A program made the position numbers and the translations under genes. Of a stretch of DNA of 64,000 nt, positions 14,609 to 63,998 are shown piece by piece; the first letter of the stretch is position 1; every line of letters starts with the position of its first letter. Below the pieces are notes generated by a model. It was not told where the DNA came from, did no database searches, and worked only from the letters and a program-made list of their open reading frames with translations. The stretch comes from an uncultured Actinomycetota bacterium (GTDB lineage Bacteria > Actinomycetota > Actinomycetes > JACCUZ01): assembly GCA_963751035.1 (NCBI GenBank), contig CAVVSW010000004.1, positions 3,142 to 67,141 of the forward strand, written 5' to 3'.

Positions 14609-14702
14609 GGGCTCGACCTCCGCTCACCCCGATCCCGTCGGAGCCTACGGCAGCGACTGCGTCCCGGACCGGCGATCAGAACGATGGCCTCGCACTGCAG
14701 CC

Positions 14703-31182: not shown

Positions 31183-31845
31183 TCAGGCCCCGGTGGCCTT
31201 GTGCGGTTCCGCGACCGGCTTGGACTCCGACGACCCGCGCTGACGCAGGTAGACCGAGCCACCGACGATGCACGCGACGGCGAGGAACTCGCTCTGCCAG
31301 TTCTGGAACGACTCGAACCAGAACTGGCTGGTCATGACGTACTGCCAGGTGGAGACAGCGGCCTCACCGTGCGCCAGCTGCTCCTCGCTGTAGGCCCTCG
31401 CGCCGCCGACCGCGTGCAGCCAGATCGACAGGAAGAACAGCAGGAAGAAGAACAGCGCCAGCGAGTTCTCGTAGATCTTCAGCACGAGCCCGCCCTTGCG
31501 CACCGGCCACGGCACCGACGTGCGCAGGTCGGCGTCTCGCGGGTCGGCGTCCTGCGGGGCTGTCCCCTCGATCGGCTTGGACTCCGAGGACCCGCGCTGG
31601 AACAGGTACGCCGTGAGCACGACGTACATGCCCATCTGCAGGAACTCGCTCTCCCAGTTCTCGAACACCGCCTCGACGAACGCACCAGTCGACAGGTAGT
31701 GCCAGAACGACACCGTTGCCTGATGGTGCTCGACCTGGTCGGCGTTGTAGGCGCCGGCACCGGCCAGGCTCATCGCGACGAGAAAGATCACGAAGAGCGC
31801 GAGGTTGGTGATCAGGAGTCCGTTGTCCCGCAGGATCTTCCGCAT
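31183..31845 (-). CDS. conserved integral membrane protein with internal duplication
   Basis: Start at ATG 31845 (MRKILRDNG). There are two homologous halves, each with W-x-Y...F-E-x-x-F-x-N-W-x-SEFL...YL-x-QRGSSESKP. The upstream 298 codons of the track ORF are antisense to the aldehyde dehydrogenase and were not used. Confidence 0.75.
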   Translation of the reverse strand: MRKILRDNGLLITNLALFVIFLVAMSLAGAGAYNADQVEHHQATVSFWHYLSTGAFVEAVFENWESEFLQMGMYVVLTAYLFQRGSSESKPIEGTAPQDADPRDADLRTSVPWPVRKGGLVLKIYENSLALFFFLLFFLSIWLHAVGGARAYSEEQLAHGEAAVSTWQYVMTSQFWFESFQNWQSEFLAVACIVGGSVYLRQRGSSESKPVAEPHKATGA

Positions 31846-31902
31846 GTTGATCAAAATTCCCGGCAAGGACGCCTTCAACCGTGGCGGGCTACGGTGAGAC
31901 CC

Positions 31903-38783: not shown

Positions 38784-39823
38784 GGCCCGACGGGGACCGG
38801 CACCCGGTCCACCAGCTCGGCGACCACTGCTTCCGCGACCGCGCGCGACGTCCCGCCGTCCAACAACAGCCGGTGGGCCAGGACGGGGACAGCCAGGGCC
38901 TTGACGTCATCGGGGAGCACGAAGTCGCGGCCGGCGAGGATGGCGCAGGCCTGTGCGCAGCGCAACAGCGCCAACGTCGACCGTGGGCTCGCGCCCAGCA
39001 GTACGTCGGCGTCCTCCCGCGTCGCTCGGGCCAGGGCGACCGCGTGGTCGAGCACCTGGTCCGACACGTGCACGGCTCGGGAGAAGGCCCGGAGCTCGAC
39101 CAGCTCCGCCGCGGTGATCACGGGTTGGAGGTCGTCGACGGTCGGCCGGACCAGCTGCTCGCGAACCACGAGCCGTTCCGCGGCCAGGTCGAGAGAGCCG
39201 ATCCGCAGGGAGACGCTGAACCGGTCCAGCTGGCCTTCGGGCAGCGGGAACGTGCCGTACTGCTCCAGCGGGTTCTGCGTGGCGATCAGGAAGAACGGCT
39301 CGGGCAGCGGGTGACGGCGGCCGTCCACGGTCACCGCCGCCTCTTCCATCGCCTCGAGGAAGGCGGACTGGGTTCGGGGGGAGGTCCGGTTCAGCTCGTC
39401 GACGAGGACGACCTGCGCGAACAGCGGGCCCGGGACGAAGCGGAAGGCGTGCGACTGGGGGTCCCAGATGCCGGACCCGGTGATGTCGGCCGGCAGGAGG
39501 TCGGCGGTGGCCTGGATGCGCGCGAACGACGCGCCGATGCTGCGCGCGAAGGCTCGGGCGAGGGTGGTCTTGCCGCTGCCGGGAGAGTCCTCCACGAGGG
39601 CGTGCCCTCCGGAGAGCAGCGCGCAGGTGACCAGGTCCACCGCGGCGTCATGTCCCCGGACGACCCGCCGCACGTTGGCGGCGACCTGCCGGGCGAGCGA
39701 GGATGCCCACTCCGAGCGGGCCGGGTCACCGCCGTACGGAGGGCGCGCCGGCCACGGGGGCGCCACCGGCGGGCTCGTCGTCACAGCCGTCCCCTCGTGG
39801 CGCGGATCCGTCCCCATTGCCAT
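38780..39823 (-). CDS. MoxR-family AAA+ ATPase
   Basis: Walker A: EDSPGSGKTTLARAFA. Walker B: VVLVDELNRTSPRTQSAFLEAMEE. ATQNPLEQYGTFPLPEGQLDRF is the AAA_3/MoxR signature. Confidence 0.9.
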   Translation of the reverse strand: MAMGTDPRHEGTAVTTSPPVAPPWPARPPYGGDPARSEWASSLARQVAANVRRVVRGHDAAVDLVTCALLSGGHALVEDSPGSGKTTLARAFARSIGASFARIQATADLLPADITGSGIWDPQSHAFRFVPGPLFAQVVLVDELNRTSPRTQSAFLEAMEEAAVTVDGRRHPLPEPFFLIATQNPLEQYGTFPLPEGQLDRFSVSLRIGSLDLAAERLVVREQLVRPTVDDLQPVITAAELVELRAFSRAVHVSDQVLDHAVALARATREDADVLLGASPRSTLALLRCAQACAILAGRDFVLPDDVKALAVPVLAHRLLLDGGTSRAVAEAVVAELVDRVPVPVGP

Positions 39824-42800: not shown

Positions 42801-42993
42801 CCGGGTCCCAGTTGGCCGGATTGGTCCAGGCATCGTCCTCGCCGCCGCCGGTCCACGTCTTCGACGAGCCTCCGGTGGCGCAGTCGGACGTCGCCGCTGC
42901 AGGGCCGGCCAGGCCGACGAGCGTTCCGGTGGTCAGAGCGGCCACCACCAGGGCGGCACAGACACGCGGCAGGCGGGCAAAGCGGCGGCTCAT
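39871..42993 (-). CDS. large secreted protein: predicted beta-helical Gly/Thr-rich region + FN3-like domain + C-terminal beta domain
   Basis: Start at internal ATG 42993: MSRRFARLPRVCAALVVAALTTGTLVGLAGPAAA (signal peptide). About 750 aa of G/T/A/V/L-rich quasi-repeats follow. FN3-like segment: YDVRWQRGG...GYTYCFSVRVRDKAGNISAWSQPLC (about 40230-40520). Lys-rich terminal domain ends VSKGKPVVVDSFGMVR. Confidence 0.75.
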   Translation of the reverse strand: MSRRFARLPRVCAALVVAALTTGTLVGLAGPAAATSDCATGGSSKTWTGGGEDDAWTNPANWDPAAVPDSNDTATVGASATIEGVSGPVCDLVLAGAADIATAPQLTGTLTVFGEARLSGFAGAASGTPFTLRVAGSVSLTADATFDRISLELLAGEPGGTVDLKAKKLFLTGASTSTMAPGSRVVDTIGGTGAGLYVGSGATLEVTTGATVLTPAIVRLVTGSTISTGGVPATLGGTGALNWQAGTLLGDLTLALQTVMDSEGTRTVPEGSKLTNNNNETGRGLQIWAGKLELGGQLVNRGLLRGFPGNPGPMITRTTAAAGILDNTPTGTLAVGASDTVAGSGQLRVDRVPLVNQTGGKVTVISGSKLLLLGDAVLPPTQSIFEALTTVSDPFTGSVGGSTPNKGTVQVASGSSLLLKGETKLQRGAILQLDDATDGTKARLIGERGTAPKVTGAALTDGTFQWRSGTVKGPITIEKVPTDVGAIGSTTRRYLEASDPADAATITFLGPVAVNATMVTLKPNARVAVSGALVIASVGSGFERSDPTTLEGQKLTINAGGSLRRIAQATTPGGSSTSSGTTTVNVPVVNYGTVTLETSLNVPAGYSQDVQAGAPTTAPEPITGLLNTNAVTLSTGDGAGHFPPIELKKGGLGGAGTIATSQLTFGSAWVHPGFGDRAGKLTVQGVVKLSPTSDVQLVMRPAVPAVAETPTSPAVPAKPITYDVLEVTPLVYTPATPAGAPSETKAPGRIELAGKVTGVSAAGFNPAYGTTMPNLVTFVERTGTFASASWRGTPSGLGWKPTYDDTASSTAPVDAKSVELKLVDVAAPALGLASIPAFTQFTSQRITYAAVDNRTGVKSYDVRWQRGGPNTPFGAWHYWGSWQNTTSTAKTLTGMDAGYTYCFSVRVRDKAGNISAWSQPLCTARMFDDRSFKATPSWYRPGGKAGFYGKTYSRSSSYGAKLTKSGQHTRVAVTALKCPTCGTIQIYSGSTLLKTLSLKSSSTGITTWISKVRPARNATMTVKVVSKGKPVVVDSFGMVR

Positions 42994-43196: not shown

Positions 43197-46100
43197 TCAG
43201 GTGAGCTTGGCCGAGCCGGTGGGCATCGGCGAGAGCGTGGGGGCCATGAACGAGTAGGTGGCCGCGTCATCATGGGTGAGGCCGACCACGTGCCCGAGCT
43301 CATGCATGATCGCGGAGCGCAGATCGATCAGGCCGGTCTTCGTGGTCCCGTCGGTGGACCAGCCGTAGCCCGCGGCGTTGACGTCGAAGTAGATCGTCGT
43401 GTCCAGCGTCTGTGCCAGGGTCGCCGCGGCCAGGTCGACGATCGCGTACTGCACCTGAGCCAGGCGTTCGGCGTCAAAGCCCATCGCGACCATGTCCGCG
43501 ATCGCGTCCGCCATCAGACCTGCGAGCACGGTCTCGGTGAGGGCCGTCACCGGTCTCGAGGGTGGTGGGATCGACGCATTGAGCGTCAGCGCGTGGGAGG
43601 GTGGCGCGAAGGCCGGGTCGTTCGTGCGCAGGCGCAGGCTGTCGAAGGACGTGGTGCCGTTGCGCGTGAACAGGCCTGCCCGCCCGTCCACCACCGCGCC
43701 GTTGTAGCCCCACGTGGTCACGTAGCTGCCGTTGAGCTCGACGGCGACCGAGGCGCCCTTGAGGCTGACGAGGAGGGTGTAGTTGGTGTTCAGCGCCAGC
43801 ACCTTGCTGATGGCCGTGTCGACCACGTAGCCCTGACGCGGTGACCAGTGCCCGATCAGAACCTTCTGGTTCGCGACGTCGAGCGCAACGAACTTGAAGT
43901 CGTTCGGCCCGTAGTAGTCGAACACCACGCCGCCGATCGCACCGGCCGTCTTGATCTTCACCGTCGCGGTCAGCTCGATGTAGGAGCTCGCCTCGAGGGT
44001 CGCCCCGAGGTCCAGGGTGGTGATCGAGGTGCTGCCGGCCGCCGCTGTGGCGCTGTAGCTGCCGGCCGCGATGGACCAGACTGACCCGACGGCGGGAATG
44101 TCGAACAGGTCGGCCAGGCCGTCGTCGAACGTCTCGGTGAAGTCCAGAGTGAACTGCGGCGGCAGGATCTGGACCGCGATGTTGTCGAAGACGCCGCGAG
44201 ACTGGTCGCTCCCGACACCGACCATGCCCTTGTTGAGACCATAGGCCTCGCCGTCGATCATCCGGGCCGGGAAGATGTGCGACAGGGCCTTGACGCCCAT
44301 CGTCACGGTGACGGCGGTGCCGTTGATCGCGATCAAGATGTCGTAGAAGATGTCCGGCTTGACCTGCAGCGGCGCCGCCTTGTCGACGATCCACCCAGCA
44401 GCGGTGCGGTGACCCAGGACGAACCGGTTCGTCGAGATGTCGATGCCGGCGAACTTGAAGTCGGTCGGGCTGAAGTAGTCGAAGATGATGTAGGCGTTGG
44501 CCTTCCAGCCTGCGGTCGGCTTGGTGACCTTGATCTTTGCCGTGATCTCATAGTAGATCGGCAGGTAGTCGTCGAGGTAGAACACTGCGGCCGCGTCGCC
44601 CGACGTCGACGCCGCCGACACCGACATGGCCCCACCGCTGACGGACCACACACCGCTGTCCGGTGCGAACGCGCTCAGCGACCCGTCGTTGAAGTCCGCG
44701 GTGCGGAGCACGTCACGCCGACCGCCTGGCACGTTGCCGGGCTGCGGATCGCTGGGTCCACCGGTCTGCGTCTGCCAGAGGCCGTGGTCCTTCTGCGTGA
44801 TGAGGCCGATCTCTCCGTCGGGCTCGCCGTTGCGGGCGGCGGTGTTCCCCGTGTCGGCAACCCGCGTCGGGTCCGCGCCCTGCGCCCGCGAGAGCGCGTA
44901 CAGGAACTCGTCGAGTGCCGGCGGGCGCTGACGGCTGACCGTCGCGATGCCGAACGGCGCGAACGGGACGATGTAGGAGTTGAACTCGCCGACCCAGTCG
45001 ATCAGGCGGTCGCCGCCGGTGTTGCCGATCAGGACGTCGAGCCCGGCACCACCGAAGGCGCGGTCCTCGTACGTCGGGTGCGTGTCGGGGGTGTCGTTCG
45101 GGCTGGGCTGGATCTTGCGCGGCTTGCCGTCGCCGTAGGTGCCTGCTCCGACCGTCGGGATGACGTCGTCGGCCTGAAGCAGGTCGTTGCCCCAGCCGCC
45201 CCAGAGCGTGTCCTTGCCGGTGCCGCCGACGAGCCAGTCGTTGCCGAGGTCGCCGAAGATCACGTCGTCGCCGTCGGTGGCGCGCAGGCCGAACTCCAGG
45301 CAGGTCGCGCCGTTCGTCGAGAGGCGGATGCAGCCGTTGACCAGCGGACCGTCCGTGCTGCTCGCGTTGAGGAACCAGTTCCAGGCCGAGCCGAAGCTGT
45401 CCTTGAACGCCGTGCCGTCGTCGTTGAGCAGGATCGCCCGGCGCGGGTCGAACTCGTCGTACAGCGCGAACTCTCCACCACGGCTCGGCTTGCTCGGGTG
45501 CCACGAGTCGCCGTCCTCGCCGTGGGCCAGCGCGTCGCCCGGGTTCCACGGCGAGACCCAGTCGCTGCGGTCGACGCCGACGAGGGCGCCAGCGGCGTTG
45601 TAGCGCTGGGTGAACGTGCCGACGACGGACTCGCCACCAGAGATCGCGTCGTCGCCGGAGCCGCCGTGCAGGAAGTCGTCACCGAGTCCGCCGAAGATGA
45701 TGTCGTCAACGTAGAAGGTGATGAACAGCGGGTCGTCGCCGGTGATCGCGTTCGGCGTCAGGTTGAACGGCGTCAGGTCCACGGCCTTGTTCAGGGCGTT
45801 GGCCTTGTTGATGGTCGCCGTCTGCACCTCGCCGGGCGTGTAGATGTACTCGTTGAGGACGTCGCCGTTGCTGAAGCGCGTGTCCGGGTCGGTCGGCAGC
45901 AGAGCGAGGATGCCGTAGAGCCGCTCGGCGAAGCAGGTACCCGCGGTGCTTCCGGTGCAGGCCGCGCCGGCCGCCGTCACGCCGGTCGCGGAGTTGCGGC
46001 TGGTGAACAGGCGCCCGTCGTCGCCGAGGACGCCGTCCTGGCCGGTGCCGCCCGAGACCCAGTCGTTGCCCCAGCCGGTGATGATGTCGTCGTCGTCGCC

Positions 46101-49100
46101 GTCACCGAAGACGATGTCGTTGTCGGCGCCGGTGTAGACCGTGTCGTCGCCGCTCTCACCGTGCACCTCGTCCACGCCACCGAGGTCGGCGCCCGGACCC
46201 ACGACTGGGCCGCTGGCGGTGTCGAACACGATCGGCTGGAAGTCGGGGCCGCCCTGCGTGTAGTCCAGCAGCGTGACGCCACGCACCACGATCTGCTCGA
46301 GGTAGGCGTTGTCGTAGACGAAGGACACGTACTTGGTCACCGCGCCGACGTCGATGTGGTTGATGCCGACGATCCGGATGATCTGGCCGTTGTCACCCAC
46401 GATGGTGTCGGCGTCGCGGCCGTGCATGTCGGTGAGTGGCAGGTCGTCGTAGCCGGCCCGGGTGCCCGCGCCGCCGAAGATGATGTCGTCGCCGTCGGGG
46501 CGGTTGGCGCGCGTGGTCAGGCTGAAGAAGTCGCTGCTGCCGCCGAGGATGTCGTCCTGGCCGAGACCGCCGAACACGACGTCGTTGCCGCCGCCACCCT
46601 CGATGTAGTCCTGGCCGTCCGTGGTCGCCTCGAAGCTCGCCACGGTGGTCAGCGGGCCGACCGGGTCGCAGACGGTGCCGACGCAGCCGCCGGGGGTCCG
46701 CGAGGCGCCGACGTGCGAGACCGCGGCGTGCGCGGACTCGATGCCGCCGTCACCCTGGATCACGTCGTTGCCGAGCTGGCCGAAGAGCAGGTCGTCGGCC
46801 GCGCCACCGGCGATGTAGTCGTTGCCGAAGCTGCCGGCCCCGGCGCCACCGGCGTCGAACGTGGCTGTGTGCAGAGCGGCGTAGTTGACCGAGTAGGAGG
46901 CCCACCACGGGACGCTGACGTCGGTGTCGCGGTAGGTGCGCGGAGCGCCGTCCACCAGGAGGACACCGGAGCTATCGGCGTTCGGGATGCCGAAGCCGGC
47001 AGGCACGGGACGGTCGGTGCGGCTGTAGATCAGCGTGCCGGCCAGCGTCTGGAACCGGAAGCTCGTGAAGTCGGTGAACCGGTTGGTGAGGACGGTCACG
47101 TTGTCGCCGAAGACGAGGTCGTCCTGCTCGTCGCCGTCGAGCATGTCGTCGCCGGCGCCGCCGATCACGATGTCCTGGCCCAGGCCGGCGAACACGACGT
47201 CGTCGTCGCCGTCCTGCAGTGAGTCGGAGGAGATGGTGAGGACCTTGTCGAGCTCGGTGGTCTGGATCCGCTGCAGCTTCGGGCTGGGCGAGTTCGGGTC
47301 CGCGACGTCCATGGCGATCACGCCGTGGTCACCGAAGATGATGTCCGCGTAGACGCCGTCCGTGCTGCCCGTGACGGTCCCCGTGCCCTCGCCGTAGATC
47401 AGGTCGCGGCCGGCGGTCACCGGGTCGGCGTTCGGGAACGTGCTCTGGTTCGACGTCGGGATGCTCAGCGCGCGGGTGAGGATGTCGACGTTGATGCCCG
47501 AGTCGCCGTAGATGTGGTCGACGCCGCGGCCGCCGATGATGGTGTCGTCGCCGGAGCCGCCGGCCAGGTGGTCGCCCGCCTGGCTGCCGATGATGGTGTC
47601 GTCGCCGGCGCCGCCGTAGATCGTCAGGCCGACGGTCGGCAGCACACCGGTGGCGCCCGCGAAGAGCAGGCTGGCGTCGATCACGTCGTTGCCGCTGTCC
47701 CGGAACGGGTTGCCGAGTGCGAAGACCCACTCGTCGTCCTCGTTCTCGGCGTCGGGCACCGTGGTGAACGGGTTGAACGGCTTGTCCCCGAACTCGCGCC
47801 CGTCGACGGTCGCCGGGTCGCCGCTGTACCAGAGGCCGTCCTGCGAGGTGTCGCCGTAGATGACCAGCGGTGAGTTGGGCCCACCGAGCACGCCACCGGT
47901 CACCGGCTGGAGCACGATGTAGTCGCCGCCCATCCGGGTGGGACCGGCCAGGTCGCCCCGGTAGCCGTGCACCGTGAGGCCGACCACGTGCGCCGGCGTC
48001 AGCGCCGCACCGGCGAGTGTGAGCGTCGAGGCGGTGACTCCGGTCACGGTCCAGGAGCCGGCCAGGCCGGAGATGAAGGCCGCCATGCCGACGACGAAGC
48101 CGTCAGCGATCCACGAGCCCGCGGCGCGGGTGATGGAGCTGGTGGCGATGTCCATCGTGCCCGTGGCCTGCGCCCGCTGCGCGTCGACCACCGAGACGAG
48201 CGCGTCGGTGAGCGATCCGGCGGCGGTGGCCTGTCCGGACAGGGCCTGCAGCTGCATCCGGCTGCCGGTGCCGCAGCCCTGGAACGGGTCGCTGAGCGGG
48301 CAGGCCGTGTTGGCGAAGCCGGTCACGAGCCAGACCCCGGGCAGCCCGGCCACGGTCACGTGCTGGCCGACCTGGTAGCCGTCGCCGGTCCAGGCGAGAC
48401 CGTCGGCGCGGGCGATGTGGAGCTGGCCTGCCGCCGGCGCGGTCGTCGTCCCGGAGGCCTCGATGGACAGCGCGGTGTTGCCGCCGCCGTGGACCACGGT
48501 GAGGCCACCGTGCGGTCCGGGGACCGCTGCGGAGGTCACGGTCGAGCTGCCGGTCGGCAGTGTCGCGCCGGCCAGCGGAGCGAAGGTCAGGACGTTGGCG
48601 GTCACCGCGATGACCCGCCAGGTGCCGTCCCGGCCGCCGAGCATGACCTGCTGGCCCACGACGAAGCCCTGGGTGATCCAGCTGAAGCCGACCACGGAGT
48701 GGGTCAGCGTGGCGCCGCCCACGATGGGCGCGAAGACGGCCGACCCGGCCCAGGAGACCGTCTCCACCGGCGAGACCGTGCGCGTCATGGAGGAGCCGGT
48801 CAGCGGCACCGAGGCGCCCGCGAACGGCCGGAGCTTGAGCACCAGCGCGGTGAGGTCGACGACCTGCCAGGTCCCGCTCAGGCCGGACACGGTGACCTGC
48901 TGGCCGATGGTGTAGCCGTCGGTGACCCAGCTGCCGGTGCCGCGGGTGAGGGAGATGCCAGGCACCGGCACGGTCCCGCCGAAGAGGTCGGCGATCGGCG
49001 CGAGCGCGAGCGGGGCAATGACGTTGACGGCGGTGAGCGGGTCGAGGGTGCCGGTGATGACGAGCTTGTCGTTGCCCTGGCCCAGCAGCAGGTTAAGGAC

Positions 49101-52100
49101 CTCGATCGTGCTCTTGGCGCCGTTGGTCCCGAACGAGCCGCCGACCGCGTTGACCGCTCCGAACGAGATGCCGCCGGGGACGACCAGAGACTCGCCGAAG
49201 CCGATGTCGCCAGCGGTGAGGCTCGGGTCGTTGGTCATGAAGTTGAGCTCGCCCGCCATGCCGAACCCGGTCAGCGTCGTCGACGACAGGGTGCCGGAGG
49301 TGTCGGACTGGCTGGAGTCGTTGAAGATGTTCAGCACGTCGATCTGGGACGACTCCGGTGCCTGTGCTGCGATGTTGAACAGCGGCGCGTCGGTCTCGCC
49401 CGGCAGCTTGACGCCGTTCTTCAGGCTGCGGTCAGCACCGGCGGCCACGCCACCCTCGACGGCCAGCGGCCCGCGCAGCTTGGAGAGCAGGTGCGTCGAG
49501 ACCGGGAAGACCTTGACGTTCTCGTGGCGCGGAGGCAGCGAGTAGAGCGTGTCGGCCTGCAGCTCGACCCGCTGCTCCATCCACCAGTCCGAGCCGGTGA
49601 AGGTGACGACGGGGGCGATCCGGGTGACGGTGACGTTGGCGAGGTTGCCGTTGACCAGCCACGCCGGCGCCGCGCCGTACGTCGTGAACTGGATCTTGTC
49701 GTCCTTGGCCTTGTTGTCGCCGCGGATCAGCGCAATCTTGAAGCGGCCGCAGACGGCGCCGGAGCAGGCCTCGACCCACTGGCCCTCGAGGAACCCGTCG
49801 GTGAGCCAGCCGGGCAGCTCGGTGCCGGCCAGGCCGGTGCGCACGAGGCGGCGCTCGGTGCCGACGATCTCGACCCGGATCTGACCACTCCAGAGGCCGG
49901 CCCGGGTGAGCCGGTTGACCAGCACGCCGGTGTACGTCGCGGGCAGCGTGGCCAGCTGGGTGGTCAGCGTCAGCGTGGTGTCGGTCACGCTCTGGACGTA
50001 GACCTCGCAGCCGAGCGCGGGGCAGCCGCCGATGACGATGCGGAGGAACTGGCCGGCGAGCAGACCGTCGTCGATGAAGCTGCCGAGGTCACTGATGCCG
50101 GTGCGGGTGAAGGTGGTCTTGCCGCCCGCGTGGCTGACGATGACGCTGCCCTCGAAGGCGCGGCTGGCCTGGTAGCCGCCGATCGTCACGTAGTCGGCCG
50201 GGGTGACGGCAATGCCGTTGATGCTGACGACGTCGACCAGGCCGTCGGTGAGCACGGCGACCTGCACCGGGGCGATCGGCGCCTTGGTGAGGCGCAGGAA
50301 CTCGTCGTCGGTCGCGCCACCCAGGACGACGAGCGTGCTGCCGCCCGACTCCTGGACCACGACGTTGGCCGTCTCGTCGTCCCACACCTCGACGGCCACG
50401 CGCACCGGCGGCGCGTACTGGCTCGGGAAGACGTAGCCCGGGGCGGTGCTGGAGGCGTCCTTGACGAACGTGATCACCGCGGTGCGCGGGTCCGAGCGGC
50501 GGCTGTCGTCGCGCGGGGTGACGATCAGGCGGACCGCCTTGTCCCAGGTGGACGAGTTGAAGGTGATCGTGCGCGCAACCGCGTCCCAGCAGGTCGGGTT
50601 CTCGGGCGGGCAGACGGCCGAGACCGAGATGGCCGCGTCGCTCTCGGCGTCCATCACGAGCCGGACCACCACGGTCCCGGAGGTCGGCGCCATCGCCAGC
50701 CGGACCAGGAGGTCGTCGGTCAGTCCGGTGATGCTGTCGCCCTCGATGACCACCGTGCGACGGTCCTCGGTGCTGGTGCCGTGGCCGACCTCGACGACGT
50801 AGACGCCAGGCGTGTCGTTGTCGCGCAGGTTGACCTCGACGTTGCGCACGGCGGTGCCGTCGAAGCGCGCGTCCTTCGAGATCACCGAGTGGGACACAGT
50901 GACGACTCGGTCGCCCTCGGAGCGCAAGTCGTCCTCGGCGAAGACGTAGACGTACTGGTCGGTCGTCCCGTTGCCGGGGGTGAACGTCAGCACGACCGCG
51001 CGGCCGTCGGCGTAGCGCAGCTGGCCGTCGACGTAGATCGCGCGGCGGAAGTCCGAGCGCGCGGTGCACGCTCCGGCACCGCCGGTGCACACCCAGAGAC
51101 TGTCGCCGGCGGGGCTGCCGTCAGCCTCTTCCTGGAACGTGCGTGCGGCGGAGACTGTGACGTAGACGTTGTGGGTCGGGAGAACCGCGAGGCGCACGGC
51201 GTAGCGGTCGATCGAGATCGGGCCGCCCTCGCGCACGGAGGTGAAGCCGTCGGTCTCGGTGATGACGACGTTGCCCTGGTTTGCGGTCGCCACGTTGAGG
51301 TCGATGCCGTCCACGATCAGGCCGTCGTAGGCCGGGTCGGGCGAGGTGACGCTGTGGTTGACGCTGCCGCTGATGCCCTCGAGCTCGCGGACGATGATGT
51401 CTTCGACGACATCGCCGGTGACGTTGATCGAGTCGCTGCCGAGGCCGCCGATGACGCGGTAGGCGACACCGAAGGCCGTGGACTGGACGAAGAACTCGTC
51501 GTCGCCCTCGAGCCCGTCGACCTCGACCACCTCGACGGTGGCGTAGCGAACGTTCAGGCCGGCGCCGAAGATGCCCTTGGCGGTGATGACGAAGTCGTCC
51601 GCGAACTCGGTGCCGAGAACGACGATCTTGTCGAAGCCGCTGCCGCCGTCGATGGAGACCGGCGCGTTGACGTTGTAGGAGACCTCGTCGTCGCCGCCGC
51701 CGGCGCGGACGTCCATCGGCCGGGCGGTGGAGAAGCCGAGCCCGATGCGCGGGCGCGCCACGCCGTCGGCGTCGAGCGGGATGGTGTCGTCGAGCCAGTC
51801 AGCCGTCAGGCCCATGGCGTCCGCGGCGTTGCACACGCCGTCGCCGTTGTTGTCCTTGCGGAGCGTGGCGCCGGAGCCGCAGGTCCCGAAGGGCACGGTG
51901 GTCGGGTAGGTGCCCGTGGCCGGGTCGAGCGGGCTGGACACGTCAGCGATGTCGCAGTCGGTGTCGCCGTCGGCGCTGCGGTCGCAGATGGCTGCGAGGG
52001 CGAACGCGCGGACGGTGAAGATGTCGTTCTGGTCGCCGCCCTCCAGGCGCAGCTCGGCCTGGTTGGAGTAGACCGTGAACGAGTCGTTGCCGGTGCCGCC

Positions 52101-55100
52101 GAGCGCGACCAGCGGGGCGCTGGTGCCTGGGCTGAGCCAGCCACGCGTGGTCGCCACCAGCGTCGGGAACGTGTCAGCCGGCGCGACCCCACCGTCGATG
52201 GCGTTGCGCTTGGAGCCGAAGATCTGGCCGATCTGGAAGCTGTCCGCACCTGACCCGCCGTCAAGCGTGATCGTCACGGTCGTGTCGTCGACGAAGAACG
52301 AGTCGTTGCCGCCGTAGCCGAAGACGTCGAGCCGGGCGTTCAGGCCGGTGTCGTAGTTGACGCGCTGAACTGCGGTCGGCTGCCCCAGCGGGACGTTCGT
52401 CTGCTGGTACTGGCTGACCGTGCCGTGGAGGAGGGCGACGAAGCCGGGGTGGTCTGCGCTCTCGGTCGGGCTCAGGCAGGTGCCGTCGGGGTTGAGACCG
52501 TAGGTGCCGTCGGTGTCGATGCAGCGCGAGGCCCGCAGCAGGAAGATGTCGTCGGTGGTCTCGCGGCCGAGGACGAAGCCCTCGTCGACGCCGTCGTTGC
52601 TCGCACCGGTGTCGAGGATGTTGATCACGTAGTTGCGGACCGAGCCAGTGCTGCCGGTGGTCTGCACCGTGTAGGTGTCGCTGTCAGCCTGGCCGTCGAG
52701 GGTCAGCGTGTGACCAGCGCCCGCAGGCTGGCCGACCTGGCCGGAGCCGACAGCCATGTTCTGCAGGTAGTAGACGAAGAACCGGTCCTCGCCGTCGTCG
52801 CCGGTCGAGAGCTTGGAACCGTCAACCTGGACGACGGGAGCGACGCTGCTTCCGTATGCCCGCGTCTTGGAGCCGAGGCGGATGTAGCCGGCGCTGCCGA
52901 GGGTGGTGCCTCCGGCGGCCCCACTCGGGTCGCCGAACTGGATCGTGTCGATGTCGCTGTTGCCGAAGATGGTGGTCAGCCACAGCGGTGGGCTGTTCGC
53001 CCCGTTGACGAGGTAGCCGGACGTGATGTCGCCACGGAAGACCATCGTCGACCCGTAGTTGAGGTCGGCGTTGGAGTAGTCGCCGTAGACGTCGATCGCG
53101 TTGGTGGCGCGGATCATGCTGTTCTGGTGGGAGCGCAGGTCGTCACCCACGCGCAGCAGCACGGAGCCTGAGCTGGCGTTGATCATGCCGTTCGGCACCG
53201 GCAGCCCCGGCAGCGGCGGTGCCGGGTCGTCCTCGTGGAACCGAACCCCGCCGTCCTTGGTGAGGAACAGGTCGTCGTCCTCGCCCAGCAGGCCGTCGTT
53301 GCTCTCGCGAACCGTCAGGCGGACGTTGCCGTTCTGGGCGTCGGCGAGCACCAGTCGCAGGTAGGAGTCGGTCTCGGTGAGGTAGATCGAGTTGCTGGCG
53401 CGCAGGCCGACGTCGGATGCACCGGGCAGCGCCTCGAGGGCTGTGTCGTCGTCGACGACCACCGTGTCTCCGCGCGAGGAGTCGATCTCGAGGTCGTTGA
53501 GGTCTGCGCCGATGCTCCCACCGCGGGCGATCAGGTCGATGCTGCGGCCGAGCACGTCAGCAGCGTCGTCACCGGCACCGCTGTTGCGGGCGTCCACGAT
53601 GGACCCGTTGAGCGTGCCGAGCGCGACGTCCTTCAGCGAGTGAACGGTGTGCACCTTGAGGTCGCCCGACGTCTCGGTGATGTAGATGCCCTCCGAGTTG
53701 GCGGTCGTGTTGTCGAACGCCTTGAGTACGCCGAGCGGCGAACCGTTGAGCACGTCCACGTCGATCTCGAGCCAGTTGGTCGGCGTGCCGATGCCGCCCT
53801 GCACGTTGCCGAGCCCGGCGTACATCGTGATGTTGACGCCGCGCACGTCCGTTCCCGTGGTGGGAGTGCTGGCGGTGAATCCGGAAATCGGGTCTGGCGT
53901 CGCCTGCGCGTCGTCCTCGGCGTCCAGGATCCGGCCGAGGGCCCAGAGCGTGACGTCGCTTCCGCTAGACGAGATGTCGTTGACCCGGAAGTCGCCGAGG
54001 CGCTCCTCCGCGTTGATGAACGAGGTCGTGAGCAGGATCACCGAACCGGTTCCGTCGCCGTTGCTGTCCGCGTTGACGATGCCGGTGAAGCTGATCTGGC
54101 CGCTCGTGAGGTGGCGCACCGAGACGAAGTCGCCCGCCGACAGGTAGGCGGTACCGCCAGCGGGCCGGTCGCCGATCGAGATCGAGCCGCCGAGCCCCGT
54201 GTAGTGCTCCGCCGAGGCGGCGAAGAGGTAGTGGCCCGTGACGGCAACCTCGGAGGTGGAGTACACGCCGAGCGCCTGCACCGGGCAGTTGCCGGCTGGC
54301 TCGCCGACCGGCGTGCAGTCGGGGCGGAAGAAGCGCTGCCAGGCCGCCTGCCCGAAGTTCGTGACGGTGCCGACCGACTCGCGGTGGACCTCGACGCCAC
54401 CGGGGCCACTGAGGCCGGTCCGGTCGAAGCTGTCGAGGACGAAGATGTCGATGTCGTCGCCGGCGACGATCGGGCCGAAAGTTATGACGAACTGATGGGC
54501 TGCGCGGCGACCTGCGTCGGCGTGCCGCTCGGACTGGACGTTCAGGACGACATCGTCGGCGGCGTCCGCCGTGATGACGATCTCGCGGGTGAACAGGCCG
54601 GCAAAGCCGGGCGCCGCGCCGACGTGGCTGGGGACGTACGTGCCGCGCGCCATGCGACGGAGCGGGTCGCTTGCCGGGGCGACACCGGTCTCGGTGTAGT
54701 CGCTCTCGATCAGCTCGACGTTGAGCTGCACGCGGCTCGACGGGCTCGTGTGCGTCCCGATCGAGCCGTTCGGCGCGTCGAGGTCGAGAACGTTCGTCCG
54801 GATCAGCTGGCTGCCCGAGAGCCGCTCGATGTCGCCGCGGTTGGAGCGGATCCTGGTCACGCCGATCGGGTTCTCGATGACGCCGTTCAGGAAGATGTCC
54901 CAGCCGTTCTCCGCGACGGGCGCGTTGACGACCTGGAGGTTGAAGATGTCGACGGCGGTCTCGATGTACGAGTGGATGATCTCGAAGTCGAACGTCTGGC
55001 CCTCGCCCACGTTGTCGGTGCGGAACGTGAACGAGTCGCTGTTCGGGACGTTCTTGACGTTGATGACGATCTCGTCCGCGCCGGGCGTCAGCGTCACGTC

Positions 55101-58100
55101 GACGGCGTTCACGATGATGTCGTGCTGTGAGCGGTTCGTGATCTTGACGTAGTCCCAGGTCTGCTGGAAGTCGAAGATCGCGGCGTTGCCCCAGATCTCG
55201 CTCTGCGGCATGCCACCGAACTCGTCCGACTCGAACAGGACGGACGCCCCGAGGTTGTAGACGATGTCATTGATCGTGATCGTGCCGCTGACGGTTCCTC
55301 CGAGCACGAGCGCCCCGGCTGCGGAGCTGCCGGTGATGTTGACGAGCGTGACGACCACGCCGTTCTCGTCGATCTCGATCTCCGGGTTGGGCTCGCCGAG
55401 CAGGATCGCCGTCGACTCCCAGTCGATGTGACGCTCGATGTTGTTCGACGAGCTGCCGTCGCCACCACCGAAGACGATGAAGCCACCGCCCGTCCTGGCG
55501 TCGTCCGTGGCCTTCGTGCCCGTGGCCTTGGCGAACACCTGGAGGTCGGCTGTGGTGATGAACGCGTCCTTGGCGCCGGTCACGAGCGATGTCCCGTTGG
55601 CCGATGAGGTGGCGTCCGCATCCTTGCCGCCGGCGAAGCAGTCGCAACGGCCGACGGCCTTCGAGTTGATGGTCTGCAGCTGGTCGGCCGTGATGACGAC
55701 CGACTCAGCACCGATCAGCTTCGCCAGCGTCGCCAGCGTGACCGAGCTGGTGCTGTCGGAACGCGAGATCGAGTCGGCGTCGGAGTCGCAGAACCCACAG
55801 TCGGCGTCGGAGTCGGAGTCCGAGACTGCCGTGCCGTTGGTCTGTGCCGTGAGCGCGATGGTCGCGCCCTTGAGCGTCGCGCTGCCCTCGATCGTGACGG
55901 TGTCGAGGCCCCGCATCGTGATCGTGTCGTCGTCGAGATTCTTGGAGCGACCGACGTAGGCCTCGGCGCGTGAATCCGCGTCACCACCGAAGGAGCCGAA
56001 GTCGGACTCCGCCTCTGCGGCGGCGGCGGCATCGGTGATCGCCTTGACAGTGAGCGAGGTCCCAGCGGTGAGGGTGCCGCCGACCTCGACCTCGGTCGCG
56101 TACGCGCTGTAGGCGAACGCATCCGTGCCGTCGCTGCCGAGGAACCCGCCCGAGTCCGACGTGGCGAGCGCGCCGACATCGCTGGTGGTCCGCCCCTGCA
56201 CGAGAATCGAGTGGAGAGCCGTCAGCGCGGCGCCGCTCTGGATGTCGATCTTGCTGTTGTTCGTGCCGCTCGCAGTGGAGCGGGCGCCGCTGATCGAGAT
56301 CCCTCCGCCACCAGTGCCGTCCGCGGTTGCCGTGATGTTGAGGATCGACCGCGTAAGGACCTCGATCACGTCGGCCTCGAGCGACGCACCAGTGTTGATG
56401 GTGATGTTCGTGTCGAGCGTCGCGCTCGCCTTGGTCTCGACGTTGCCGACGTTGATCGCGCCGCCCGTCGTGCCGCTCGCCGACGCCACGGCCTCTAGGT
56501 CGCCGGCCGCGGATGCGGAGAGCGTGGAGGCACCGCCGACACCCGAGAAGCGTCCGTTGTCGTTGCCCGCAGACGCGCTTCCGATGTCGACGATCAGGCT
56601 GGCGGTCCCGCTGCCGGCCGAGGTGAGGTTGATGCCCTCGTGGGCGAACCGGTGGCCGCTGAACGACAGGTTGGCGGTGTAGTTGGCCAGGCCGCCACCG
56701 AGCTCAGGGTTGAAGCCGTTGGTCTTGGTGATCGACGACGAGATGCCGATCGCCGTGCCGCCGAGCGTCTCGAGCCGGAACTGGTTGGCGCCGAGACCGG
56801 TCGTGTCGACGAGGTAGGTGGCACCGTCGGTGAGACCCGGGATCGGGGCGTTGATGGCCAAGGTGAGCGTGTGCCGGTTCTCGCTGTTCGCCTCGGTCTT
56901 CGTTCCCGGGTTGAGGGAGATCGGGTTCCGGCGAGCGGAGCGTGCATCAGTCTCCGTCCCGTCGTCACCGCCGTCGGGGAGTGCGCAGTTGCTGCCGGCA
57001 GCACCGCCGACCGCGTCGCAGTAGGACGTGTGCAGCTGGATCAGGTAGCTGCTGCCGGACACGAGCGAGACGAAGTACATCGTGCCGTCGGTGAGCCCGA
57101 TGTTGCTGCCGTCGAGGCTGTGGTAGATGACGGCGTCGCCGGCTGCGAAGGTGTGGGCCGACCAGGTGCCGCTCGAATTGGGGGTACCGGCGAAGATCGC
57201 GTTGTTGTTCACCGAGTTGAGCGGGAACGACGTGCCGATGTCGGGCCCGGAGCTCCCGAGGCTCGCGACGTCGACCATCGCGTTGGTGAACTGCAGCGTC
57301 GGGGCGGGCGCGTGGTACGTCACGTTGGTTCCGTCGCCGAACCCGTGGTTCGTCGTCGTGGTTACGACGTCGGTCCCACCGTTGACGCTCGAGACGTTCT
57401 GGGAGTTCTCGGACTGCCCGTCGGGCAGGAGCTTGATCGTGCGCGAGTCGATGACGTTGACCGAGTAGCGCGTGCCGTCGGTGAGGCCGCCGATCGTCGT
57501 GCCGCCGTTCCGGTAGTACTTGACCGACTGGCCGTCGTAGAAGTTGTGGTCCTGCGAGAACGTGATGGTGTCGTTGGTCGTGTCGACCTGCGTACCGGCG
57601 TTGAAGAGGTTGCCGAGTGAGATCGTCTGGTTCGTCACCTTGATCACGTTGTAGGACTGCCCGCTGACCAGACCGCAGCACGAACCGCTGTAGATGATCG
57701 TCTCGCCACCGTTGAGCTGGTGGTTGAGCGCGGTGTTCTCGCCGAGCGCGGTCAGGGTCACGACATCCGTGGCCCCGTCGATGCTCAGCACGGTGCCGTC
57801 ACTCACGCTGTTGGTGCCCCCGCCGTGCTGCGCGGTGATGGTGATCTTCGATCCCGCGATGACACGGTTGGTGTCGCCCACGTTGACCGACACGTCGGGG
57901 CTCATCTTGATCGTCGAGTCGAACCCGGAGACGGAGATCACGCCGCCGCCGCCACCACGGGCGCGCGCATCCGCGTCGGACGCCTGGTTCCCGACGACGT
58001 TGATGTTGCCGCTGACGTGGACGATCATCGAGCCGACGCCGAAGTTGACCGTCAGGTCGGGCGAGGTCGTCGCGACTGCCGATCCACCGCCGGCGTTGAC

Positions 58101-61100
58101 GATTCCGCCGCTCAGCGACGACATCGCTGCGTCGGAGGTCGCGAAGCCGACCGCAATGACGTCGAGCTGGCCCGAGCCTGCCGTGGCGACGGAGCCGATG
58201 CTGCCGTTGAACGTCGTCGTGGTCGATCCGAGGGCGTCGGCGTGGACGTCGACGCCGACGGTGAACGCGACCGCGCCGATCGCCTGCGAGTTGACGGCCG
58301 CGACGACCACATTTGCGTTGTAGGAAGCGGCGATCACGTTGCCACCGTTCGTGGCGAACGTCGCGTCGCTCGAGACGAGCGTGGCCACGTCCGCAGCCGC
58401 GGTGGCGTTGATGTCGGAGCCGATTCCGGCGCCGAGGCCGTAAGCGGCGTTGGAGGCGGACGCAATGGCGCCGGTGTCGGCGATTGCGCCGGTCGTGCCG
58501 AAGTTGTGGCGGGCGATCAGCTCGACCTTCTTCGTCGCCGCGTTCGCGGTGAGCGACGCATTGGATGCGACGGCCGCAAGCACGGTCGGGTCGTGGTCGG
58601 CATCGGCCTTGGTCTTGGTCCCGGCGATCGCGGCGCCCGAGAGACCGGCGGCGCTGGCCTCGGTCTTCCCCACGAACTCGGCCTGGACGTGGATATCGCC
58701 CTGTTGCGCGACAAGCAGGGCCCAGGCACCGACCGTCGCTCGCGCAGTGCCGTCCTGCCGGGCGACGGACGTCGCGCCGCCACCGGCACCGAAGAGCGAG
58801 AACGACTCGAACCGCGGCTCTGCCTCGACCGTCGAGTTCAGCGTCGCATCGGCGCTGATGCCGCCCGCGCCGGTCGCCGTCACCTGGGTGCGGTTCCCCG
58901 ACGAGCCGCTGGCGCCGCCGCCGAGTGCCCACATCGAGCCGCTGGTGGCATTGTTGAGGGCCGGGTTGGTGGGTCCGGACGAGACGTGCGACCGCTTCGC
59001 CGTGTACTGCTGGCCGTTGGAAGCCGTGACGATGTCGCCCTCGTAGTAGACGACGTCGGCGCTCGACCAGGTCCCACGGCCGCGTGCCGGGCCGATCGTG
59101 ACGCTGGCCGAGCCGAAGTCCTCAGCAACTGCCTTGACCAGGTTGATGTCGAGGACGGCACTGAAGCCCCCGGTGCTGACCGACGAGACCACGTTGTGCG
59201 TGGCCGTCGCGTTGAGGTCGATGCCCGCTGCCGTGACGTTGGCGCCGTTGCCGATCAGCGCCGTCGTGTTCGACGTCACTCTGGCCGAGGCCGTCAGGAC
59301 GCTGATCGACAGCCCGAGCGAGACGTCCGTTCCGCTGATCGAGGGTGTCGCCTTCGACGTGCCGTTCGCGGTCGCCGTGAGGTTGCCCGAGAGGGTGAGC
59401 GTCGCGTCGTCGTCGATGCGGCTCGACGTGTCGTGCCCGGCGGTCGCCAGCGTCGACGAGACCGAGACGCCGAAGAACAGGCTGATGCCGACGTAGCTCA
59501 GGTCTGCTTTCGCCTCGGTGTTCGACGTGGCGGTCATCGCGACGTGCCGGGCAGTGACGGACGAGCCCGTTCCGATGTACGTCTCTGTCGCGCCACCCTG
59601 CGCCCCGACGGTGGCCACTGCCTCGTAGGTCGCGACCGACCCGATGCCGCCGGAGCCGCCTTCGATGTCCGCGAGTGCGTGCGGGCCGGTCGGGGTCGTC
59701 GTCGCGTTGAGGGTGAGGTCGTGGCCGGTCATGTTCAGCGTCGACCCGGCGCCGACGAATGCCGCCGTGTCGCGGTCGAAGTTCGCGATCGCGCGCATGA
59801 TGTTGACGCCGGCGAGGAGCCCGACCGCGCCGCCGGTCGCTTCGGCCTTCGCCTGGGCGACATCGTCGACGGCGTTCGCGGTGACGTGGCCGCTCGTCAG
59901 AGTCGTGCGCGGGCCGACGTAGGCGCGGGTGGCGCCGCCGACGTTGGCAGTCGGGATCGAGACGTTGACGGCGAAGGCGATGCTGCCCGCGCCACCCGTG
60001 GCGATGGCGATGCCTTCGACATCCGAGTGCGCGTCGAGCGTGACCGAGCCAGGGTTACCACTCTCGTTCCGGATGTCGACGACGCTCGAGCTCGAGCCCG
60101 GGCCGGCGTTCTCACCGAGGTATGCCTCGACGATGCTGTTCGCGTTCGCGATGACCTCGACGCCCGTTCCGGCACCCAGACCGGAGACCGTGACGGCGAA
60201 CGCGTCGGCCTTCGCGAGAACGTCGGCGTCGGCGTCGATGTCGAGGGACCTCGCGCGGATGTCGGTGCCGTCGCCTGCGTAGGCCCGCGTCGCGCCGTTC
60301 ACCGTCGCCGTCGGGCGCATGACGGTGACCGTCGCGATGAGCGATCCACCGCCACCCTTGGTGGTTGCGAGGGCGTCCATCGTCGAGTAGGCGTCGATGT
60401 CGATCACGCCGCTGCCCGCGCTGTTGACATCGAGGAGTGCGTTGGCCTTGCCGCCGTCTGCGACGCCGTTTGTCGACCCGATGTACGCCTCGACGACCCC
60501 GCTGATCGTGGAGTTCGACTTGACGCCTGCCCCGGAGGCGCCCATCGCGACCGCGATCACGAAGTTGGTCGCGGTGGCGTCGTAGTCGACACCGTCACCG
60601 ACGGTGCCGGCGTGGACGTCCAGGCTGCCGGCATCCATGTTCACGCCGTCGCGGACGTACGCGCGGGTGGTTCCCGAGACGGTCGCCGAGGCGTCGATCA
60701 CCGCGATATCGGCGGCCAGCGCGGCACCGGCGCGAGTCGTGGTGGCGATCGCTTCCATCCACGCGTCCGCGTCGACGTCGACGCTTCCTTCGTTGACGTC
60801 GACATCGGTCGTGACGTCGGCCGCCACCGACGACGCCTGCGCCCCGATGTACGCCTCCACCGTCCCGTTCACGGTGGACTCGGCGGTGACCCCCGAGCCG
60901 CCGGCGAGACCGGAGAAGTTGAGGCTGTTCGAGACGACGTTGGCCTTCAGGTGGCCGTCGGCGTCGATGTCGACGGATCCTGCGTCGACATCGACACCCT
61001 CGCCGATGTAAGCGCGGATCGTGCCCGTGACCTCACCGACGAGCTTCAGCATGGTCACCGCGATGGCCGCGACGGAGCCACTCGCAATCGTCGGCACCGC

Positions 61101-63998: not shown

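Follow-up and report, generated by a model that had tools for sequence, protein, structure and literature searches.

The window analyzed here is a stretch of 64,000 nucleotides from an uncultured Actinomycetota bacterium (assembly GCA_963751035.1, contig CAVVSW010000004.1, positions 3,142 to 67,141 of the forward strand). One end of it is taken up by a single minus-strand open reading frame (ORF), positions 43197-63998, that encodes the C-terminal part of a giant protein, and sequence comparison makes it close to certain that this protein belongs to a family of giants that are colinear with one another. We consider it probable that the giant is a secreted, Ca2+-stabilized, all-beta extracellular fiber that carries lectin domains and a mini-metzincin at its tip.

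An earlier sequence-only reading of the window had reported a 20.8-kb minus-strand ORF without stop or start in the window, and this was confirmed as one frame of 6,933 sense codons that runs from position 63998 to a TGA stop codon at 43199-43197 with no internal stop. The last two bases, up to position 64000, carry the ORF on, and the frame is open at the window edge. The GTG at 63998 is merely the first in-frame codon and not a start; the visible sequence opens in the middle of a repeat unit, and the true start, with the N-terminus, therefore lies outside the window. GC content at codon positions 1, 2 and 3 was 0.63, 0.52 and 0.93 (the last referred to as GC3), and between 11 and 353 stops were counted in each of the remaining five frames of the same DNA, which together identify a genuine coding frame and not a chance one.

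The visible product, the C-terminal 6,933 residues, has a mass of 701.5 kDa and a pI of 4.28 and is strongly acidic, with 750 aspartates and glutamates compared with 341 lysines and arginines. Its 32 cysteines all fall within 16 short-range pairs, and 12 of its 17 GGxGxD sites lie within aa ~5460-6330. No transmembrane-like stretch was found in the visible protein with a strict Kyte-Doolittle scan, where the sole window above threshold falls in a beta-repeat array. Acidity, paired cysteines, GGxGxD sites and absence of transmembrane stretches are sequence marks of an oxidized, calcium-binding, extracellular protein, and judged by them the giant is almost certainly extracellular. On the nearest relative, the ENA contig L001, the N-terminal gene call is 5,052 aa long and ends at about window aa 1900. 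Given equal repeat numbers, this call would place ~3,100 further residues upstream of the window and the full length near 10,000 aa, with the visible ORF making up roughly the C-terminal two-thirds of the protein.

To recover relatives, a profile built from aa 3199-3699, in the central region, was scanned against one genome per GTDB species; because only two peptide patterns were used, the resulting counts are lower bounds. At least 54 loci from seven phyla were observed, including 26 from Actinomycetota (Micropruina, Ilumatobacteraceae, Salsipaludibacter, Microbacterium, Arthrobacter, Agromyces, Curtobacterium and others), 19 from Pseudomonadota (Ensifer/Sinorhizobium, Mesorhizobium, Rhodobacterales, Marinobacterium, Rhodoferax and others), four from Planctomycetota, two from Desulfobacterota or 'Deltaproteobacteria', and one each from Verrucomicrobiota, Bacteroidota and Chloroflexota. 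Of these loci, 49 were 15 kb or longer, and in 41 of the 49 the ORF was open across all of the 21-kb locus. With tblastn the window protein was colinear with its relatives over aa ~1900-6800 at 40-53% identity, and the match to Salsipaludibacter albus (53% identity) extended over window aa 597-6793. An exhaustive HMMER search with the core profile returned 1,633 cluster representatives among 1.84 billion, with 428 of these at E ≤ 1e-30. The same modules were thus found in the same order in at least 54 genomes of seven phyla, and the sequence-only view of the protein as an unassignable, one-off mosaic is not upheld; neither is the statement that such proteins are rare in Actinobacteria, as nearly half of the loci (26 of 54) are actinomycetotal and include Microbacterium, Arthrobacter, Agromyces and Curtobacterium. 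Outside Omnitrophota, giant genes in general come most often from Actinobacteriota (West-Roberts et al., bioRxiv 10.1101/2023.11.21.568195).

In a neighbor-joining tree of the core, Actinomycetota sequences were placed in several clades with proteobacterial, planctomycete and Bacteroidota sequences interleaved, a pattern that fits old paralogy, horizontal transfer, or both. Copies on a 54.8-kb plasmid of Rhodococcus antarcticus, on Ensifer/Sinorhizobium megaplasmids and on Rhodobacterales plasmids support mobility of the gene. The closest relatives, the ENA long-read contigs L001 and L002, were 80-90% identical to the window protein in the core and 40-67% elsewhere, and both are ridden with frameshifts; the apparent start on L002 is itself a frameshift and not a true start. 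Loci L061 and L062 were left out of the reading of N-termini as too fragmented. Our search of the literature on the family found nothing beyond incidental mentions of LEPR-XLL and general papers on giant proteins. The earlier judgment that no characterized family could be assigned is retained, no relative of the giant having been characterized.

Two complete members of the family were aligned with the window protein by blastp, both colinear and at 35-50% identity. The first is a 12,918-aa coding sequence (CDS) of Pseudosulfitobacter sp. DSM 107133 (WP_114295156.1, given the PGAP name 'LEPR-XLL domain-containing protein'), whose residues 5821-10077 and 11109-12800 align to window aa 466-4647 and 5370-6916, respectively. 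The second, a complete ORF of 9,028 aa on Ensifer adhaerens pCTYH.Ch1_1, does not contain the N-terminal repeat array. An ortholog search with comparison of domain order had been proposed earlier as a check, and it returned such colinear orthologs, with window aa 3142-6909 aligned to Ensifer residues 4904-8849 at 43-50% identity. Both orthologs begin ...LEPR[FY]LLSAD and match NCBIfam NF012209 ('LEPR-8K') at 33.4 bits (Ensifer) and 30.3 bits (Pseudosulfitobacter), with a cut-off of 17. The Rhodococcus antarcticus copy had no NF012209 match; its N-terminus begins with a Sec-type signal peptide (SARIRIPIAIVLVVALATGG...ALAAASA), from which a Pro/Thr-rich linker leads to a mini-metzincin (HELGHFLGLDH...GLMAP). 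From these N-termini, the LEPR-XLL domain has probably been replaced in Actinobacteria. The Rhodococcus copy spans positions 900-32602 of locus L058, over half of plasmid NZ_CP110618.1 (54,865 bp). Its annotation consists of two 'hypothetical' CDS (6,747 and 2,189 aa), with the colinear frame running through an unannotated gap, and the open frame also reaches upstream of the annotated start to the signal peptide, Pro/Thr linker and mini-metzincin.

A set of genes was observed directly after the giant in both Ensifer adhaerens pCTYH.Ch1_1 (L060, 32390-40241) and Pseudosulfitobacter (L057, 33352-41149). The gene order in Ensifer is an HlyD adaptor with a GAF domain, a fusion of an M50-like intramembrane HExxH protease to HlyD, SapC, a SecA paralog and a further HlyD adaptor, and the SecA paralog, which scores 558 bits where the cut-off is 814, is missing the C-terminal third. 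Genes of corresponding size and order are present in Pseudosulfitobacter, where the SecA-sized one is labeled 'prepilin peptidase' by PGAP. The HlyD, M50-HlyD, SapC and truncated-SecA set suggests a candidate dedicated export system for proteins of ~10,000 aa. The LEPRxLL giants of Chlorobium chlorochromatii have SapC and TolC neighbors (bioRxiv 10.64898/2026.03.19.712371), and SecA paralogs without scaffold and wing domains accompany giant genes in Omnitrophota and Actinobacteriota (bioRxiv 10.1101/2023.11.21.568195).

Tiled Pfam and NCBIfam scans of the giant recognized only the RTX repeats and the C-terminal matrixin-type signature, single-sequence and profile searches of PDB found nothing beyond RTX, and about the first 5,400 residues had no Pfam, NCBIfam or PDB sequence match. 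The architecture was therefore traced from structure models, internal repeats and conservation among orthologs, with all features lying on the minus strand. The family-defining central core (aa 3142-3900, nt 52299-54575) resembles a beta-solenoid in AlphaFold2 and Foldseek analyses. An AlphaFold2 model of aa 2950-4050 built with 38 fragments (pLDDT 68.6, pTM 0.74) was all beta with short strands, and pLDDT exceeded 90 over aa ~3250-3750. Foldseek neighbors of this model in PDB were almost wholly beta-helix or solenoid proteins (passenger domains, adhesins, lyases, tailspikes), none of them a significant match, with TM-scores of 0.2 or less.

The most conserved block follows at aa 3900-4250 (nt 51249-52301), where 50-aa windows at aa 3951-4200 had 0.79-0.86 identity to 20 orthologs from several phyla, with many invariant columns. 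This block contains D-G-G-x-G-x-D-x-F calcium-type motifs and EF-hand/dockerin-like Asp loops, and it had weak similarity to CyaA RTX in a PDB profile search (E 0.04). The motif strings quoted in the sequence-only reading were found at aa 3912, 3985, 4116 and 4160, with VEVNLRDNDTPGVYVV at 4387 and VAVEVWDDETANVVV at 4534, and every one of its DGG-x-G-x-D-x-F-type strings was located in the protein. Its Cys-bracketed Asp loops are borne out in part, as EF-hand or dockerin models match the Asp loops (aa 3880-4480) in a few of 23 orthologs. The Calx-beta-like segments were not: the quoted strings exist, but Calx-beta was rejected after no match was obtained in the window (E ≤ 5), in 23 orthologs at aa 4440-4990 or in 23 at aa 3880-4480.

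A further conserved block (aa 4830-5000, nt about 48999-49511) is followed by four W-x2-[DQ]G[FY]-x2-G[QM] modules of ~90 aa (aa 4981-5333), the two together covering nt 48000-49511 and delimited by invariant columns, internal repeats and motif positions. The block includes the invariants ADRSL, KLPGE.D and QAPES.QIDVLNIFNDSS (22-23 orthologs), and identity to orthologs was 0.70 at aa 4851-4900; neither the block nor the modules had a Pfam or PDB match. Six W-x2-DG[FY]-x2-GQ modules had been proposed, a number we could reach only with a relaxed pattern, the strict one giving three.

Dispersed RTX nonapeptide (GGxGxD) blocks occupy aa ~5460-6330 (nt 45009-47621). Here the sequence-only reading was correct: Pfam HemolysinCabind matched six stretches (E 1e-28), NCBIfam RTX-containing families and PDB CyaA RTX also matched, and the DNA has a 27-nt periodicity. 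Conservation is high on both sides of the repeats. At aa 5400-5500 (nt about 47499-47801) a conserved block reaches 0.81 identity to orthologs (aa 5451-5500), and the post-RTX segment and linker (aa 6300-6432, nt 44703-45101), which belong to a conserved block at aa 6300-6450 (nt about 44649-45101), had 0.84, 0.65 and 0.73 identity to 20 orthologs at aa 6301-6350, 6351-6400 and 6401-6450. The stretch GDRLIDWVGEFNSYIVPFAPFG is one of the invariant-rich, unannotated stretches among the conserved blocks of the giant. The post-RTX segment might act as an RTX cap.

Two tandem domains follow that we read as ConA-like (LamG-like) jelly rolls, at aa 6433-6600 and 6621-6800 (nt 43599-44702). Self-comparison delimited a duplicated ~150-aa domain (aa 6433-6585 and 6621-6774), and among 12 aligned orthologs nine matched 3keto-disac_hyd (best E 4e-9) and six Laminin_G_3 (2.3e-7), both of the ConA-like clan; Laminin_G_1/2 and Gal-bind_lectin were further matches, and a profile search against PDB found only galectin-10 (E 0.4). 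The duplication behind the two LamG-like domains proposed earlier is thus present, and the domain assignment is backed through the aligned orthologs and not by a Pfam match of the window protein. The protein ends in a mini-metzincin module (aa ~6815-6933, nt 43200-43556; HELGHVVGLTHDD) that had likewise been recognized from the sequence: HELGHVVGLTH at aa 6899 (HExxHxxGxxH) is followed by an SFM Met-turn, with the stop 15 residues beyond that Met, and Pfam Peptidase_M10 matched the isolated module above its cut-off (28.5 bits compared with 24; profile positions 77-146 of 159). The motif and Met-turn are intact in three distant copies, those of the window, Ensifer (C-terminal) and the Rhodococcus antarcticus plasmid (N-terminal).

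At the other end of the visible protein lies an array of extender repeats (aa 1-1644, nt 59067-63998), identified by self-comparison, an iterated hidden Markov model (HMM) and AlphaFold2. An array of 115-130-aa repeats at 59.2-64 kb had been seen by eye, and the iterated HMM resolved it into 14 contiguous units of ~115-120 aa with three dispersed units (15-17) at aa 1701-1759, 2001-2086 and 2496-2592. Each ~118-aa repeat consists of two half-units of ~52-62 aa, with the anchor motifs G-x-TRAYVG and G-x-VEA-[YF]-[IV]-G. An AlphaFold2 model of aa 1-720 (18 homologous fragments; pLDDT 90.6, pTM 0.92) was purely beta, and in it strand runs 20-44 residues long alternate at ~52 and ~62 aa, two to each repeat. 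Foldseek found no match to it above TM ~0.3 in PDB or BFVD, and neither this model nor that of the core had a significant match in the two databases. FlgD_tudor Pfam matches in the repeats were under the cut-off and judged spurious. The array occurs in some clades and is absent from Ensifer; the C-terminal core is constant.

Two kinds of small segment interrupt the repeats. Between units 14 and 15 lies a CBM5/12-like segment (aa ~1644-1700, nt 58899-59069), which had been noted earlier; its match to Pfam CBM_5_12 at aa 1644-1676 is weak (E 0.0076; 16.7 bits with a cut-off of 26.2), and the CBM_5_12 mark in the L001 homolog was recorded as 'faint'. Four small G-L-x-x-G-x-x-Y-x-V modules (aa ~2100-2400, nt 56799-57701) were located by pattern search between units 16 and 17, at aa 2109, 2171, 2301 and 2388. 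Three of them match the strict G-L-T-D-G-x-x-Y-x-V form in which several modules had been reported, and one further module is a variant. The motif is kept in 20 orthologs, and no Pfam family was matched by the modules in any of the 20. As dispersed repeat units flank them, the CBM-like segment and the G-L-x-x-G modules are inserts in a longer repeat region.

From these features we propose the following model. In Actinobacteria, a Sec signal peptide at the N-terminus, like that of the Rhodococcus plasmid copy, would direct export of the giant, and diderms would use the LEPR-XLL N-terminus together with the dedicated HlyD, M50-HlyD, SapC and truncated-SecA genes. Outside the cell, the protein would fold in a Ca2+-dependent manner into a long, rigid fiber, a shape suggested by strand patterns in the models and by the Foldseek neighbors. 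A variable number of ~118-aa beta repeats would form its extender, followed by a conserved shaft of ~4,900 aa in which a beta-solenoid and RTX rolls are combined with Ca2+ motifs and small barrel-like inserts. The signal peptide and Pro/Thr linker of Rhodococcus, the one actinobacterial N-terminus available, suggest a cell-proximal N-terminus and a distal lectin/protease end. At the tip, two ConA-like lectin domains together with a minimal zinc-metzincin would attach the fiber to glycans of a surface or of another cell and may cleave the target or the fiber itself.

Several observations weigh against this model. No LPXTG, SLH or LysM wall-anchoring motif was found in the visible 6,933 aa with Pfam and NCBIfam scans, and a signal peptide or anchor cannot be shown for this copy, as its N-terminus is outside the window. 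The ConA-like pair had no Pfam match in the window sequence itself even at E ≤ 5. The metzincin module (~120 aa) corresponds to only about one half of the catalytic domain of matrixins, and its zinc site could be non-catalytic. Since no relative of the giant has been studied, its location and function are inferred. Blocks with 80-86% identity across phyla are also unusual for fast-diverging adhesins and hint at a conserved partner, an enzymatic site or an export constraint outside an adhesin model. The strong conservation of several unannotated blocks is the main point that a simple adhesin model leaves unexplained.

A wider interpretation of the fiber takes up this point. It is conceivable, if clearly less probable than the fiber as such, that the family represents an undescribed surface organelle, a single-polypeptide 'megafiber' of 9,000-13,000 residues that is plasmid-mobile and has its own export machinery in diderms. 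The window copy would then be a Sec-dependent version, and a conserved partner or activity would lie behind the ultra-conserved blocks. The elements of this interpretation are the ~4,900-aa shaft present over at least seven phyla, the blocks with more than 80% identity between Actinobacteria and Proteobacteria, the beta-repeat model without structural relatives, and the plasmid carriers, which include the ~30 kb of a 55-kb Rhodococcus plasmid and the Ensifer and Rhodobacterales replicons. An S-layer protein was also considered and rejected on size and architecture.

The giant could instead be a device for contact-dependent delivery or cell-cell interaction, in which the fiber reaches a neighbor and the C-terminal lectin/metzincin acts on or enters that cell. 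Such a role has been suggested for Cag_663 and Cag_665, two LEPRxLL giants of Chlorobium chlorochromatii (bioRxiv 10.64898/2026.03.19.712371), and more broadly for the giants of predatory Omnitrophota. The diderm orthologs have the LEPR-XLL N-terminus and SapC neighbor in common with Cag_663/665, truncated SecA paralogs lie beside giants in Omnitrophota and Actinobacteriota and beside the Ensifer ortholog, and the tip has a zinc-protease signature. Several hosts, such as Ensifer adhaerens, attach to other bacteria, which also counts toward delivery. We nevertheless regard this as unlikely, because the C-terminal region is conserved across phyla and not polymorphic, the next gene encodes a secreted protein of 1,040 aa with no small immunity-like gene after the giant, and the hosts are mostly ordinary soil or water heterotrophs. 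A polymorphic toxin of the CdiA/Rhs type was rejected, as the C-terminal 550 aa are conserved across phyla with ~50% column identity and no immunity gene is next to them.

Somewhat less likely again is an enzyme scaffold: the giant would be an exoenzyme, either released or tethered, that degrades polysaccharide or protein and whose beta-rich bulk is only a spacer. The best Pfam match of the orthologs (3keto-disac_hyd), the metzincin motif and Met-turn kept intact in three distant copies, and the weak CBM5/12 match are all in line with such an enzyme, and the ultra-conserved unannotated blocks could be catalytic. Yet less than 10% of the protein consists of putative catalytic modules, the metzincin is truncated relative to active matrixins, and Pfam, NCBIfam and PDB profiles detected no enzyme family, whether glycoside hydrolase, lyase or other, in ~5,400 aa.

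An assembly artifact or dead gene, that is, chimeric or collapsed repeats or a pseudogene left open by chance in GC-rich DNA, was considered because at least one ordinary gene of the window is frameshifted and the closest relatives, both ENA long-read assemblies, are riddled with frameshifts. The sequence-only reading had mentioned several ordinary genes with indels, of which we confirmed at least one and regard a second as a candidate. The confirmed case is a GAF-PAS-GGDEF-EAL gene (27978-31179, plus strand) split inside GGDEF near 29,950 (29.95 kb), with its start LALTDTLTGLANR and AALLMLDVDRFK...GGDEF in different frames, by either a real frameshift or an assembly indel. The candidate is an aldehyde dehydrogenase ORF (32117-33412, plus strand) that matches Pfam positions 148-460 only, its N-terminal third missing or in another frame; it may be a second indel. 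Its stop-to-stop extent overlaps an opposite-strand DUF6766 gene (31186-32745, minus strand). No homopolymer runs of six or more were found in the giant gene (43197-63998), compared with 12 in positions 1-43196, and runs of five or more were about four times rarer (0.43 per kb in the gene, 1.76 elsewhere). Should the indels stem from long-read errors or from real slippage, the giant frame would be intact because it has far fewer homopolymer sites. Codon and amino-acid usage might account for this depletion, as might selection against slippage in a gene of 30 kb.

The evidence against an artifact is extensive, and we give this explanation very little weight. A GC3 of 0.93 and 6,933 stop-free codons contrast with the 11-353 stops in other frames, and the frame is colinear from end to end with intact orthologs of isolate genomes. 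DNA copies of the extender repeats have diverged, only 60-80% identical among themselves, which makes collapse or expansion of the repeats in the assembly unlikely; with units at most 80% identical in DNA, repeat collapse was rejected. In an independent Logan assembly of run ERR11592907, the 1,040-aa neighbor was identical, and before it stands a 390-aa end-truncated gene where the C-terminus of the giant sits. Least probable of all, to the point of being negligible, is a lineage-specific mosaic built by recent domain shuffling without relatives of the same architecture: the ~5,400 aa without Pfam, NCBIfam or PDB sequence match and a word-index protein search that gave just 16-26 'hypothetical' fragments could suggest it, but the sparse matches reflect the return of fragments of at most 1,566 aa and not a lack of relatives, and the colinear orthologs in 54 genomes of seven phyla, at 40-53% identity over ~4,900 aa, refute it.

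The giant gene is followed by a 203-nt spacer and an ORF of 1,040 aa (39871-42993, minus strand) with a Sec/Tat-like N-terminus (MSRRFARLPRVCAALVVAALTTG...AAATS), a beta-rich body and an FN3-like C-terminal part; it had no Pfam or NCBIfam match. Scanning the spacer (200 nt after the stop) for terminator and promoter consensus sequences gave nothing, and by eye only a weak hairpin was seen, with a good ribosome-binding site ahead of the next gene. The 1,040-aa neighbor is syntenic only in L001 (71% identity over the first 231 aa). Next to it, and on the same strand as the two large secreted-protein genes, is an operon of MoxR (AAA_3), DUF58 and a TgpA-type transglutaminase (35767-39823). That the transglutaminase might act on the two large secreted proteins, for example by cross-linking them, is pure speculation. 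Housekeeping genes are also among those downstream of the giant. Elsewhere in the window we observed a protein of 1,053 aa that has PKD domains toward the C-terminal end (5979-9137, plus strand), a 1,188-aa regulator with zinc-ribbon, adenylate-cyclase, AAA_16 and TPR domains (11060-14623, minus strand), a HerA-like ATPase gene (21935-23386) and a holin-X gene (26341-27132).

Giant secreted proteins are usually dismissed as fast-evolving adhesins built from repeats. This family departs from that picture, as ~4,900 residues keep their order at 40-53% identity, and conservation that reaches Actinobacteria, Proteobacteria, Planctomycetes and Bacteroidota points to a conserved surface function in many soil and water bacteria. 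Some carriers (Ensifer, Mesorhizobium, Arthrobacter, Microbacterium) are cultivable and genetically tractable, and the candidate export-gene set of diderms ties the family to the Omnitrophota giants and to proteins of the Chlorochromatium symbiosis. The window itself adds one more, edge-cut relative to a widespread and uncharacterized giant family.

Among known systems, the RTX adhesins of the type I secretion system (T1SS; LapA, MpIBP, FrhA, SiiE class) are likewise large and acidic with RTX near the C-terminus, and Ca2+ dependence is predicted for the giant as well. Both have a repetitive extender and then ligand-binding domains, predicted ones in the giant, toward the C-terminal end. However, the extender of RTX adhesins is BIg-like, whereas that of the giant consists of long-strand beta repeats that match neither the Big or cadherin families in Pfam nor anything in PDB. 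RTX adhesins end in a T1SS signal and the giant in a metzincin module, and they do not have a shaft like its ~4,900-aa non-repetitive, conserved one. Genes for an ABC transporter, a membrane fusion protein and an outer membrane protein accompany RTX adhesins; none was observed near the giant downstream, and its host is apparently a monoderm actinobacterium. Two-partner secretion (TPS) exoproteins (FhaB, CdiA, HxuA, EtpA) and autotransporter passengers are alike in the elongated all-beta solenoid type predicted for the giant. They are the nearest Foldseek neighbors of its core, non-significant at TM 0.2 or less, and the likeness is one of general fold class only. In contrast to TPS proteins, the giant has no haemagglutinin-repeat or TPS Pfam match and no polymorphic C-terminal toxin with an immunity gene.

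The likeness to Cag_663 and Cag_665 of Chlorobium comes from the LEPRxLL N-terminus and SapC neighbor of the diderm orthologs. The giants of Omnitrophota and Actinobacteriota resemble the family in their SecA-paralog association and large unannotated beta-rich stretches. The Chlorobium and Omnitrophota proteins are 20,000-85,000 aa long, and those of Omnitrophota have many transmembrane helices and enzyme domains, neither of which is present in the visible window giant. The metzincin module has the same HExxHxxGxxH motif and Met-turn as minimal metzincins (matrixin/serralysin M10, snapalysin-size) but measures only ~120 residues and is a terminal part of a giant protein (N-terminal in the Rhodococcus copy). 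The LEPR-XLL or 'LEPR-8K' giants (NF012209), a name given by an automatic rule, are true homologs and the only family of the giant by homology. They are defined by a 24-residue N-terminal domain, a part of the window giant that lies beyond the edge, and they reach ~8,000 aa or more, compared with more than 6,933 aa visible here. Diderm LEPR-XLL loci carry the HlyD, M50-HlyD, SapC and truncated-SecA genes, none of which occurs in the 43 kb downstream of the window giant. The order of modules is nonetheless common to the giant and its LEPR-XLL orthologs, from the solenoid core through the Ca2+ block, W-x2-DG modules and RTX to the two ConA-like domains and the mini-metzincin.

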